Source: Octopus vulgaris (taxonomy: Eukaryota). Taken from it: a DNA stretch of 64,000 bases. The notes beneath the pieces were generated by a model, which saw only the letters and a list, made by a program, of their open reading frames with translations, was not told the DNA's origin and did not search any database. This document shows positions 1,884 to 53,985 of this stretch, in pieces. The translations under genes and the position numbers were made by a program. The first letter of the stretch is position 1. Each line of letters begins with the position of its first letter. Location of the stretch: positions 93,930,001-93,994,000 of the forward strand of contig OX597821.1 in assembly GCA_951406725.2 (NCBI GenBank). Direction: 5' to 3'.

Positions 1884-2181
1884 AAACAATTGCAGCGTGG
1901 AAGATGTTTGTAAGCCATTTAAGAAACACACAAAAGCCGTTCGATTCACTTCACCATTTAAGTTTAATTTGTCAAAATATTTTCGTCGCTAAAATCCGCG
2001 ACCTGTTCACTGACAAAAATCCAAGATGCATCTGAGCAGCATGGATTTTTGTCAGTGAACAGGTCGCGGATTTTAGCGACGAAAATATTTTGACAAATTA
2101 AACTTAAATGTTGAAGTGAATCGAACGGCTTTTGTGTGTTTCTTAAATGGCTTACAAACATCTTCCACACTGCAATTGTTT
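1884..2181. repeat. Near-perfect palindrome: 140-bp arms (1884-2023, 2042-2181), 18-nt loop; probable inverted Penelope-like pLTR
   Basis: Arms are reverse complements with 2 mismatches seen. Abuts (TA)n and contains a hammerhead-like motif. Confidence 0.95.
2048..2097 (+). ncRNA. Minimal type I hammerhead ribozyme motif, G3/C8 core variant (mirror copy on - strand at 1968-2017)
   Basis: tttgtca [GTGAACA] g gtcgc-ggatttta-gcgac [GAAA] atat TT tgacaaa. Helix I 7 bp, helix II 5 bp, palindromic helix III AATATT. Confidence 0.7.
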
Positions 2182-2454
2182 TCGTTCCAGCAGACGATCT
2201 CAGATCAAATCACTTGCTATGCAAGTACATCATCATCATCATCGTCGTCGTTTAGCGTCCGTTTTCCATGCTAGCATGGGTTGGACGGTTCTACTGGGGT
2301 CTGTGAAGCCAGAAGGCTTCATCAGGCCCAGTCAAATCTGGCAGTGTTTCTACGGCTGGATGCCCTTCCTAACGCCAACCACTCCGTGAGTGTAGTGGGT
2401 GCTTTTTACATGCCACCCGCACATTACATCTCTGTAATATATATATGTGTGTGT

Positions 2455-2638
2455 GTGACCGCGTGTGTATTGTTGATGATTTTCTTTCTCTGTCTTCCCT
2501 TCCTTGGACCTTTCCTTTCTCTATGTTTCTGACGAAGAGCTCCTTCATTCTTTCCTTTCCTGAGCGTCCAATAACATTATACTTGTTCCACGTCCTCGCC
2601 TTGTTGTGTTTTCTCTTTGTTCATGTTTGGATTAACTA
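2455..2638 (+). mobile_element. Penelope-like terminal remnant with truncated hammerhead (CTGACGA at 2529-2535, GAAA half absent)
   Basis: CTGACGAagagct without the downstream GAAA. Pyrimidine-rich flanks, ends at (TA)n. Confidence 0.45.
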
Positions 2639-2695
2639 TATATATATATATATATATATATACTTTATTTTAAGCAGCAGAAAATTCAACAAAAT

Positions 2696-2733
2696 CTGTT
2701 ACTCTGAGTTTCTCGTTGCCGTTCATCAGACAG
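2696..2733 (-). ncRNA. Minimal type I hammerhead ribozyme motif between two (TA)n tracts
   Basis: Minus strand: ctgt [CTGATGA] acg-gcaa-cga [GAAA] ctcagag TA acag. GUA triplet; first helix II pair mismatched. Confidence 0.7.
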
Positions 2734-2745
2734 TTTTTGCTAGAA

Positions 2746-2807
2746 TATATATATATATATATATATATATATATATATATATATATATATATATATATAT
2801 ATATATA
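2746..2807. repeat. (TA)n microsatellite, representative of many (e.g. 19-62, 3268-3304, 25375-25441, 53550-53585)
   Basis: Direct reading. Confidence 0.98.
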
Positions 2808-4149
2808 CTCTTTTACTCTTTTACTTGTTTCAGTCATTTGACTGCGGCCATGCTGGAGCACCGCCTTTAGTCGAGCAAATATATATATATATATATATAT
2901 TTCATCGTCGTCATCATTATTGTTTAATGTCTGTTTCCTATGCCGGCATGGTTTCAACAGATTGCGTGTGTGCATGCGTGCTCATGTGTATGTATATGTA
3001 TGGATATGTGTGTAAATTATAAACTAATAGCTCAAACATTCATATAATATATATTAAGTGTTATCCATTTGTAATCAGTTTGTGAACAATACATTCATAT
3101 ATACGTGTGTGTGTGTGTGTGTGTGTATGTATGTATGTATATATGTGTGTGCATGTCATCATCGTCGTTGTTTAACAGCATTCCATGCTGACATGTGTTG
3201 AATGGTTTGACTGAGGACTGGCAAAGTTGTACCAAGCTCCAATCTGATCTGGCAAGGTGTGTGTGTGTATATATATATATATATATATATATATATATAT
3301 ATATTATATTAAATTAGAGATAAAACCACTATTAGGTAAATCAAACAGTGAAAAACATAAGCCAATACATAAAATTAATTTTAAAATATAAAAGTTAAAA
3401 ATAAAAAATTATTTAAATAATTTAAACTTATAAATTTTATATATATATACAAATATATATATATGTATGTTTGTATATTTTTATATTTATATATTATTTT
3501 ATTTATTTTTTTTTTTATTATTTTTTTTTTTAAATATCAAAAGTATTAAAAGTTTAATAAAAGATAAAGAGTAAAACACAAAACTAAGTTTGGATTTATT
3601 CCCTAATATTATTATTATTATATATATATAATTTTTTAGACACATACACATATGTTAGTATTGGATTTGTTGAGTTTGTTAAATTATTTTGTCTGTGTTT
3701 ATTGCTTATATATACATTTAGACATATACATAACAGTGTGTAACAGCATAGTTAACAAACATGAATATTCATATCCTTAAAATATTTTTAGCTTTGCAGA
3801 AAAAATAATAACACTGTGGTTACAAATCAAGTAATTTTAGTTCACTATAAAGTAACACTTCTGTAACTTATCTCACACGCTTGTTGCTTCAGTTTTCAGA
3901 TGGAGGTATAGCTTCCACCTGACATATTAAATTTAGCATGGATATATATTGGTAATAAACACTGCATTGTACAGTCACAAGTGTTAATCTGACAAATTTA
4001 TTAGTATAAAATTAAATGGAATGTATTGCAGCTTATTTATGTAAATTTTTGTATGTAAAATGCATAATTAATATTTGTGCAGTATTGAAATACTGCCAAA
4101 AAAAAACACATTTGGATTATACTTCATTATCTTCTTATTCTGTTTTTAG

Positions 4150-51177: not shown

Positions 51178-51348
51178 TTAAAATTTGTGACTGTTTAAGA
51201 ACAATGCGTTATTTTAACCAAATTTTGACAAAACCTTTAAATCTCTAATATTAAAAAGAAGACCAGTTTTGAATTCAGTTCATCATGCTTTGTGTTTCTT
51301 GTTTCCAAAAGACTACAAGGCAGTCGGTGAACTTTTATATTAGTGATT

Positions 51349-51733
51349 TGGAGGTGCAATGGCCCAGTGGTTAGGGCAGCGGACTCGCGGTCATAGGATC
51401 GCAGTTTCGATTCCCAGACCGGGCGTTGTGAGTGTTTATTGAGTGAAAACACCCAAAGCGCCACGAGGCTCCGGCAGGGGATGGTGGTGATCCCTGCTGT
51501 ACTCTTTCACCACAACTTTCTCTCACTCTTACTTCCTGTTTCTGTTGTACCTGTATTTCAAAGGGCCGGCCTTGTCACTCTCTGTGTCACGCAGAATATC
51601 CCCAAGAACTACGTTAAGGGTACACGTGTCTGTGGAGTGCTCAGCCACTTACACGTTAATTTCACGAGCAGGCTGTTCCGTTGATTCGGATCAACCGGAA
51701 CCCTCGTCGTCATAACCGACGGAGTGCTTCCAC
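51349..51733 (+). mobile_element. tRNA-derived SINE family C
   Basis: tggcccagtggttag A box, gtttcgattccc B box, 12-bp TSD atattagtgatt. Confidence 0.93.
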
Positions 51734-52322
51734 ATATTAGTGATTCTTAAGTGAAAGGTGCAAAATTTTATTTCAACACGTGGAAAAAAAATTACTTGTT
51801 GCTTCCTAATGCTGTATAATGAAACAGTGTAATCATTAAATCAGAAATTATATGTTATAAGTGTAGACAATTTCTGCTCAGATTTGCAAGAGTAGAAGTG
51901 CTAGACACTGTGAATTTATAGCAGTTTGAATTAGAGATCACTTGAGGCTTGTTTTTACCCTTAAGCATGCTTTGAGATTTCAAAGATGTGATTGTTTATT
52001 TTTAGGACATTGTAGGGTGGGTGTGAGAGGCCAGATCTAGTCAATCTGAATGTAAAACAGAATATTTGAGCTGGATATGACTGGTTTAAATGCTAAAGGG
52101 TTAAGGGGGGATGAGAAGTTTTGGCACAACCATTTTGGTACCACATATTTGGAATTTCTGAAACAAGTAAAAGAATAAAAGAATATATATATATGCATAC
52201 ATAATATATGTATGTATATATATATAACAGGAAGGTTTATGAAAATAAACAAAAGACGAAGGCAGGTGGAGTACAAACAAACAATGTATTAGTATGGCGC
52301 CCAGGAAGAGAAATAAAACAAG

Positions 52323-52360
52323 TCTTTTACGTTTCGAGCCTACGCTCTTCGACAGAAAGA
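52323..52360 (-). ncRNA. Minimal type I hammerhead ribozyme motif, A6U variant, in a Penelope-like remnant (about 52226-52420)
   Basis: Minus strand: tcttt [CTGTCGA] a gagc-gtag-gctc [GAAA] cg TA aaaga. Palindromic helix III ACGT. Flanked by (TA)n. Confidence 0.7.
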
Positions 52361-52828
52361 TACACAGAAAAGAAACAAGGAGAGAAAAAAATGCGTGTAG
52401 GGGCTAACGATCCAACATGGATATATATGTATATTATTTTATTCTTTTACTTGTTTCAGTCATTTGACTGTTTCCATGCTGGAACACTGCCTTTAGTCAA
52501 ACAAATTCACCCTAGGAGTTATTCTTTGTAAGCCTAGTACTTATTCTATCGGTCTTATTTTTTTGCCGATGTAAGTTATAAGTTATGGGGGTGTAAACAC
52601 ACCAACATCAGTTGTCAAGTCATGGTGGGAGGACAAACACACACATATAAATAAATATATATATGTGTATATATATTTTGTGAAATAGAAAGATGAATAA
52701 TCTTATTGCAGATTAATCAAAAGTTTAACCGATACCTTGGTAGCAAAAATCACAGCAGAAGACAGCACGGTTGGAGGTACAACCATATGGTGTTGCAACC
52801 ATGCGTTGGTGCGGATAATTGAATTTTA

Positions 52829-53234
52829 ATATTATTAGTCAATTGAAGAAATGGAGTTGAACGAAGATTGAACAGAAATCGTTTTATTGCATTCTACACG
52901 TGTTTCGAAAGCCACAATTTACCAAATTCCGATTGAATAAGGAGACCATATTGTGTCTTTCTCTTCAGGAAGAAATAGGAAATCCGTAGGCAAAAACAAA
53001 AACAGAACAGAGGCGCAGCAAAACAAATCGAACGAGGCTCCTAAGAGCCCATGGCCAAACTTTTTGTTTTTGCCTACGGATTTCCTATTTCTTCCTGAAG
53101 AGAAAGACACAATATGGTCTCCTTATTCAATCGGAATTTGGTAAATTGTGGCTTTCGAAACACGTGTAGAATGCAATAAAACGATTTCTGTTCAATCTTC
53201 GTTCAACTCCATTTCTTCAATTCACTAATAATAT
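52829..53234. repeat. Near-perfect palindrome: 174-bp arms (52829-53002, 53061-53234), 58-nt spacer; probable inverted Penelope-like pLTR
   Basis: Arms are reverse complements with 1 mismatch seen. The ORF track shows mirror peptides on both strands. Confidence 0.96.
53092..53171 (+). ncRNA. Type I hammerhead ribozyme motif with extended helix II (mirror copy on - strand in the left arm)
   Basis: ttc [CTGAAGA] gaaag-a-cacaat...attgtg-g-ctttc [GAAA] cacgtg TA gaa. Canonical core, palindromic helix III ACACGTGT, GUA site ending at 53168. Confidence 0.75.
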
Positions 53235-53985
53235 GTGTATATATATATATATATACACACGCATACAATGTTTCCATCTACCAAATTCATTTACAAGGCT
53301 TTTGTCAGCCTGAGGCTATAGTAGAAGACACTTGCCCAAGGTGCCACACAGTGGGATTGAACACAGAACCATGTGGTTGGTAAGGAAGCTTCTTACCACA
53401 CAGGCACACCTGTGCCTGTATATATAATATATATATATACAGATAAAACTTACTTGGAAGAGGATGCATGGCATTCAATCATATGATAATATAAATAATA
53501 TATGTATATGCATATATTCATATGTATATGTACATACTTACATCTATACATATATATATATATATATATATATATATATATATATGCATATGTGGGCACA
53601 GGACGTCATGAAACATGTACAACAAAAAAACACAAAATACGAATACATGGAATATGAACTATTTTTTCAAACAACGTGAAACTCAAATGGAAAACAAGAC
53701 AAACAACATAAAGAATGACCCTTCATCAGTTGTTGGTTGTTTTTCTACTCTCGTATTTTGAGCTTTTAACAATAGCGTATGCTTTTGATAAAACAGTTGC
53801 TCCTGCAAAGCAAATTAAATTCTTAAGGTGGTGCCCCAACATGGCCACAGTCTAATGACTGAAAGAAGTAAAAGGTAAAAAATAGAGATATTCGACTTCA
53901 TCAATGTTTGAATAATCAATATTTGGTTTATTTCCTTATGTTTTATTCTACCTCATGTTTGCTATTATAATATAATGTCTTGCAG

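Follow-up and report, generated by a model that had tools for sequence, protein, structure and literature searches.

Minimal hammerhead ribozymes of probable Penelope-like origin lie on both strands of octopus introns

How can a self-cleaving RNA motif persist within the introns of a gene, and does the strand on which it lies matter? The question is raised by a 64,000-nucleotide (nt) stretch of the Octopus vulgaris genome (contig OX597821.1, positions 93,930,001 to 93,994,000; hereafter the window), in which seven hammerhead-like motifs lie inside a DOCK6/7/8-like gene. The original prediction held that they derive from several families of Penelope-like retroelements, that sense-strand self-cleavers are purged from introns unless locked in double-stranded RNA, and that RNA editing could release them. 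Here, we report that the motifs are very probably minimal hammerheads in short copies, likely the 5'-truncated 3' ends of several Penelope-like families, and that they likely persist on either strand because cleavage by a single copy is too slow to interfere with splicing. The original prediction is partly supported: it correctly recognised Penelope-type minimal hammerheads, and its model of purging and locking is not supported.

The placement of the motifs was confirmed by tblastn with mollusc DOCK proteins, which located + strand exons across most of the window (Table 1); the best protein match of the gene is cuttlefish DOCK6/7/8. All seven motifs are intronic and the sense strand is +, with exons on either side of each group (1382-1603 and 4150-4236; 31690-31860 and 33671-33754; about 50606-50944 and 53996-54244).

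Four of the five folds predicted to be complete (starting at 2048, 32441, 52323 and 53092) pass a descriptor for minimal type I hammerheads, and the same scan adds mirror copies of the 2048 and 53092 motifs; six matches in the window score at least 25. For comparison we used a known-strand sample of 1.4 Mb (140 stretches of 10 kb) from 26 gene bodies (2 DOCK, 16 myosin and 8 dynein heavy chain), with the strand taken from exon matches; nested genes may be included, and axonemal dyneins may be narrowly expressed. There, 65 real matches score at least 14, against 13 in reversed or complemented controls, and 23 against 2 score at least 23. Thus, the folds are not chance. The fifth fold, at 2696, has a canonical core and fails both descriptors, as its helix II consists of two Watson-Crick pairs and an A.A mismatch; its relatives have three pairs.

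A core of positions 3 to 9 in which 3 pairs with 8, together with GAAA and UH, is present in the 2048 (as G3-C8), 32441, 53092 and 2696 motifs and in both mirror copies. The 52323 motif departs from it at position 6 (U), and those at 2529 and 53723 are without GAAA. Helices I and II have at least 3 bp in 2048, 32441, 52323 and 53092, which is not true of helix II of 2696. As predicted, helix III is tiny in all five folds, being an exact palindrome in 2048, 52323 and 53092 and a near-palindrome in 2696 and 32441, and the motifs mostly lie beside (TA)n: six of the seven are within 150 nt of a (TA)5+ run, against 17% of random positions, and 32441 is 759 nt away. Monomer folding z-scores are weak except for 2048 (z=-2.5) and were not used as evidence. 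In cofolding, 32441 alone is predicted to form the helix III dimer; 2696 gives a fragmentary version of it, and the other three do not form it.

Two further motifs had been described as half-motifs. That at 2529 does belong to a hammerhead family, in which relatives retain GAAA on both strands, often with other core changes. The only free sense core has indeed lost its GAAA half, but the 21-nt deletion between short repeats accounts for this and looks like ordinary decay. The status of 53723 as a hammerhead was not established, since no matching downstream GAAA half was found in the three relatives viewed either. An Rfam scan recognised no hammerhead at any of the seven motifs. The scan also returned a sub-threshold Hammerhead_1 match at 826-871 (+), with 20.2 bits against a cut-off of 34 (E=3.9), which the descriptor misses and which is probably chance.

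Every motif has relatives elsewhere in the 2.8-Gb genome. The 2048 family has 3,991 exact pattern matches and the 52323 family 16,707, with 0 in controls for both. Copies of the 53092 family are 93-100% identical, and the copy in the window belongs to a young dispersed family rather than to a conserved locus. The motifs were said to have unrelated flanks, and several separate repeat families are indeed present; however, alignment shows homology between the 52323 and 2529 families (score 121, against a shuffle maximum of 75.5). Helix I covaries in one family outside the window, CUGANGA...GAAACGCGU: its 40 distinct contexts hold 166 pairs, against a shuffle mean of 143, and 0 of 2000 shuffles reach 166, a count specific to this family and uncorrected for relatedness. 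Loop II of this family (L141-L200) often carries a GTAAGT-like hexamer resembling a 5' splice site, which may be an extended stem. Further intronic hammerhead families occur in the sample (L014-L016, L033 and others), among them an abundant U3-A8 family whose copies often form a short head-to-head palindrome.

The connection with Penelope-like elements was followed upstream in a walk through longer copies of the 53092 family (L210-L218). In four of them (L214, L216, L217 and L218) an open reading frame (ORF) stops some 600-700 nt short of the hammerhead. GIY-YIG clusters in the Atlas match its C-terminus with a score of 0.96, and in BLASTP this part matches a neighbouring ORF (E=2e-13) that itself falls just below the Pfam GIY-YIG cut-off; a long N/S-rich low-complexity insert, recognised by eye, lies ahead of the endonuclease (L216:423-1580, L217, L218). 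In five of six long loci the 3' end recurs, inverted, at the 5' junction, and one arm has a tail. Tandem head-to-tail arrays, a retrozyme trait, do not characterise this family: one of its 37 loci is a direct pair, 592 nt apart among the matches listed, and the rest are single or inverted. Naiad/Chlamys Penelope-like elements are ruled out for this family by the C-terminal GIY-YIG domain and the canonical core. In a second family, absent from the window (L129), the hammerhead likewise follows a GIY-YIG fragment. No GIY-YIG fragment lies beside copies of the 2048, 2529, 2696, 32441, 52323 and 53723 families in the roughly 2 Mb surveyed, which covered short copies.

We examined arrangement and strand with a census of hammerhead families in the known-strand sample. 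It retained 97 of 103 non-window rows, dropping two tandem-duplicate antisense copies, two double matches and two alignment artefacts; three weak seeds were removed, TA-rich alignments were filtered, and a short interspersed nuclear element (SINE)-like repeat that mimics the 5' core was counted as non-hammerhead. A tandem duplication of about 6.3 kb in a myosin intron (C12, L028-L029) repeats two hammerhead elements.

The two sense motifs in the window do sit in the downstream arms of near-perfect palindromes, but their antisense mirror copies went uncounted in the original prediction: each palindrome holds one sense and one antisense hammerhead. The complementary arm is, as stated, transcribed first; this order is forced by symmetry and so is no signal of neutralisation, because a head-to-head palindrome reads alike from both strands and its sense copy always falls in the downstream arm, whichever strand the gene is on. 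Head-to-head geometry was found in 41 of 41 paired arms of the census, in all 19 paired loci among the 37 of the 53092 family, and in six of six close pairs among the first 100 of the 3,991 matches of the 2048 family; the matches listed for the 52323 family include one tail-to-tail pair (C1:1878303/1878450). About one third of intronic census elements are palindromic (25 distinct symmetry centres, counted by eye, versus 56 free copies). In the parts of the literature compared, head-to-head is the most frequent arrangement of Penelope elements and is ascribed to self-priming (Arkhipova 2013; PMC3846280), and minimal hammerheads also occur in pairs, one on each strand, with 100-700 bp between them (Cervera and de la Pena 2014; PMC4209133). 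We infer that the palindromes are by-products of integration through fold-back priming, not a lock kept by selection. The three complete motifs called free are all antisense, but 32441 sits in a loop between 94-nt inverted arms that do not cover it, and three of three has p=0.25.

Complete purging of free sense copies is rejected. A tolerant descriptor finds 24 sense and 23 antisense matches in the sample (controls 12 and 14). The census counts 45 sense and 52 antisense copies in all, 27 and 29 when free (p=0.89), and 18 and 15 when free and broken; intactness does not differ by strand (p=0.29). Nine free sense copies with intact core and helices are spread over seven of the 26 genes.

Two checks independent of annotation point the same way. 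As a strand proxy, we took 60 of the first 100 of 225 intact CUGANGA...GAAACGCGU matches, re-found 57, and ran a k-mer strand classifier on their flanks (leave-one-gene-out accuracy 0.84). Of the 50 free intact copies, 27 are sense-like and 23 antisense-like (mean score +0.17), with 11:4 among strong scores; in simulations with genic fractions of 0.25-0.6, this has P<=0.006 under a full purge and P<=0.02 under a 25% sense fraction. Among 100 consecutive copies of the 52323 family listed on C1, whose U6 core may be weak, neighbours have the same orientation in 16 of 38 cases at 2-50 kb and in 22 of 58 at 2-100 kb, where a full purge would give a fraction of 0.65 if 30% of the pairs shared a gene (P=0.003 and 2e-5). 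Gene bodies have strand asymmetries of other kinds as well: k-mer asymmetry predicts gene strand at 80-87% per 10 kb, and a common SINE-like repeat is skewed 154:84 by loci. We found no study of intronic strand bias of Penelope hammerheads in the literature searched, preprint supplements lying outside that search.

Retention on both strands would follow from the slowness of a lone ribozyme. In the reports compared, Penelope elements insert as 5'-truncated copies, which often have a second, inverted copy at the 5' end and a tail on one side only (PMC3846280, PMC8557442), and insertions of this kind, arising through fold-back priming, may have produced the copies in the window. A lone minimal hammerhead would then be near-inert in pre-mRNA, with the intron still spliced; selection on it would be weak, since monomers do not cleave and slow-cut introns splice, so both strands would be retained. 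Published results are consistent with these steps, as far as the cited parts go: minimal hammerheads have no monomer cleavage and low dimer cleavage (PMC4209133), introns cut by slow hammerheads are still spliced while a fast ribozyme blocks processing (as summarised in PMC2995048), and in Anolis no reads end at the element's cut site (PMC11167929). In pre-mRNA the palindromes would pair into long duplexes and, as a side effect, hide the core. The intronic copies are most likely inert remnants. A>G counts were alike in presumed RNA runs and a DNA run, in four of 24 runs whose contigs are dominated by other repeat copies, a comparison uninformative on editing, cleavage or expression.

Several observations count against this account, the first of them touching the origin of the copies. 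With the 53092-family ORF as query, Pfam gave no match and a homolog search found none; a thumb-like reverse transcriptase stretch before the endonuclease in L218 was recognised by eye only, and it too has no Pfam match. An ORF is linked to the hammerhead in the 53092 family and the non-window family at L129, so that the Penelope derivation claimed originally stands on anatomy and ORF for the 53092 family and on anatomy alone for the other window families. The 52323/2529, 2048 and 2696 families could instead be independent SINE-like or retrozyme-like hammerhead elements rather than fragments of autonomous Penelope. We consider this unlikely, although 18 of 18 copies examined that match the 52323 pattern are short, share no visible long upstream sequence and have no ORF fragment beside them, and parts of a 2026 preprint argue that the retrozymes of animals derive from Penelope elements and are not autonomous. 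The minimal-hammerhead consensus published for Penelope elements accommodates the 2529 family, the same head-to-head pairing is seen in the 2048 and 2696 families, and the copies are dispersed, without tandem arrays.

The other adverse points concern strand. Free intact copies lean antisense, 9:14 (p=0.41, 95% confidence interval of the sense fraction 0.20-0.61), as they do in myosin and DOCK genes only (4:7, p=0.55), in a looser census (15:23) and when the two tandem-duplicated copies are restored (9:16), and in the part of the 2026 preprint compared, retrozymes are depleted from Xenopus introns, not split by strand. Mild purifying selection might therefore remove some free intact sense copies (e.g. 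40:60), most strongly in broadly expressed genes, and the neighbour test is compatible with a 25% sense fraction (P=0.10). A mild sense deficit is compatible with the data, but no ratio is significant, the proxy leans the opposite way, and AATAAA is itself rarer on the sense strand of gene bodies (1500:1821), so a small bias need not stem from cleavage; we regard such selection as unlikely. The model in which sense self-cleavers survive only when locked in a hairpin, which ADAR melts to release cleavage as a regulatory switch, is highly improbable. The two palindromes are predicted to form very stable duplexes that bury the core (-239 and -302 kcal/mol, 90-95% paired), the palindromic share of the census is substantial, and RNA editing is extensive in coleoids; the palindromes are plausible editing substrates. 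Yet free intact sense copies in seven genes largely refute the step that requires locking, the geometry is strand-symmetric and the usual Penelope product, and the 53092 copy is of a young dispersed family. Release of the ribozyme would need most of a 150-170-bp duplex to be undone, and editing would also strike core adenosines.

The 52323 family carries U at the normally invariant core position A6. This base is kept in 96.4% of the 16,707 exact copies; the 602 non-T copies have mostly C among the matches listed, and position 7 holds all four bases. U6 is common to subfamilies with different flanks, and the related 2529 family has A6. Keeping U6 while position 7 varies is the pattern expected if replicating lineages keep a working core. 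Going by sequence, the family might tentatively be read as a natural, still-catalytic hammerhead variant, which may be throttled yet sufficient for processing of its own RNA; the alternative is a dead core carried by a non-autonomous element. In the parts of the literature compared, A6C is a rare, slow, Mn2+-favouring core variant (PMC3088659, PMC7151607). No natural U6 core was found in the literature searched, the Lunse 2017 data set lying outside the search, and its novelty is unproven. If the catalytic reading is true, a throttled U6 ribozyme, too slow to hurt host transcripts, may have let the 52323 family outnumber its canonical relatives.

The negative result has wider meaning: sense-strand minimal hammerheads, by thousands, can sit in introns and show no sign of purging. 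This agrees with a monomer activity close to zero and speaks against reading host control into a handful of antisense copies or palindromes. The approximately 16,000 U6 copies make intronic strand selection on ribozymes directly testable. Within a single genome, whole families are marked by G3-C8, by U3-A8 and by U6 cores, which amounts to a natural mutational scan; this diversity is relevant to the function of Penelope hammerheads, still an open question.

The features of the window are collected in Table 1. Its DOCK introns also hold a 5S ribosomal RNA copy (103 bits) at 8498-8616 (+), a reverse-transcriptase fragment (PF00078) at 46033-46791 (-) and a mariner-type transposase fragment (PF01359) at 55087-55590 (+).

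Table 1. Host gene, hammerhead motifs and repeat insertions in the window
Feature	Position	Strand	Basis
Host gene, DOCK6/7/8-like	444-56193, continuing past the window to contig position 94060258 (C8)	+	mollusc DOCK exon matches
Head-to-head palindromic insertion of the G3-C8 hammerhead family, beside (TA)n; arms 1884-2029 and 2036-2181, 97%	1884-2181	.	self-alignment; family pattern with 3,991 exact genome matches vs 0 in control
Mirror copy of the 2048 hammerhead; antisense to DOCK	1968-2017	-	descriptor
Minimal type I hammerhead, core GUGAACA (G3-C8 pair), helix I 7 bp, helix II 5 bp, palindromic helix III; sense to DOCK	2048-2097	+	descriptor, fold
Short repeat copy; its hammerhead (core at 2529) is missing 21 nt, GAAA among them, between two CTCC repeats	2454-2662	+	relatives
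Hammerhead family member; weak helix II (2 bp plus A.A, GNRA loop), near-palindromic helix III; antisense	2696-2733	-	fold, relatives
Insertion with 94-nt inverted arms (32307-32400, 32527-32620) enclosing a hammerhead	32307-32620	.	self-alignment
Minimal type I hammerhead, canonical core, 4-bp near-palindromic helix III; antisense	32441-32499	-	descriptor
Member (about 200 bp) of a highly abundant family; its hammerhead, 52323-52360, has U6 (core CUGUCGA); antisense	52185-52420	-	descriptor, family comparison
Extension ("tail") on one arm only of the 53092 element	52659-52828	-	family comparison
Probable young head-to-head palindromic, 5'-truncated Penelope-like insertion; arms 52829-53002 and 53061-53234, 99%	52829-53234	.	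self-alignment; family copies 93-100% alike
Mirror copy of the 53092 hammerhead; antisense to DOCK	52892-52971	-	descriptor
Minimal type I hammerhead, canonical core, long helix II, palindromic helix III; sense to DOCK	53092-53171	+	descriptor, fold
Repeat copy with CUGAUGA at 53723-53729; hammerhead status unproven	53565-53820	-	relatives

The motifs can be set beside several known systems, each as described in the parts of the cited reports that we compared. Like the intronic hammerheads of amniotes (RECK and others, PMC6155905), they are type I, intronic and retroelement-derived; those are conserved single loci with tertiary contacts, whereas the octopus motifs are dispersed repeat copies that no Rfam model matches. 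The U6 core resembles that of phage Bcep176 (PMC3088659, PMC7151607) in being a natural change at core position 6, where A6C is slow in Mg2+, but a single phage sequence has C6, while U6 is fixed across several subfamilies of a family with more than 16,000 exact copies. In architecture and Penelope association, the motifs agree with the dimer-cleaving hammerheads of short stem III (Lunse 2017, via PMC6765202). The 53092 family shares with endonuclease-bearing (EN+) Penelope insertions (PMC3846280, PMC8557442) the 5' truncation, the inverted 5' copy, the prevalence of head-to-head pairs, the one-sided tail and the microsatellite bias; its tail of about 170 nt differs from the 30-40 nt published, and Neptune, Poseidon and Nematis are candidate clades. 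The low-complexity N-rich insert inside its ORF is also found in rotifer Penelope elements (Arkhipova 2013, PMC3846280; Craig 2021, PMC8557442). Within the metazoan Penelope minimal hammerheads (PMC4209133), a U3-A8 core variant has already been described, in contrast to the G3-C8 (about 4,000 copies) and U6 (about 16,100 copies) cores found here, which are absent from the parts compared; the passages of the supplement that were compared, supplement file 1 being outside their scope, give no cephalopod example. The octopus motifs share other features with them: they are type I, with a tiny palindromic helix III and an extra nucleotide after A9, and belong to many families per genome, mostly as single truncated copies.

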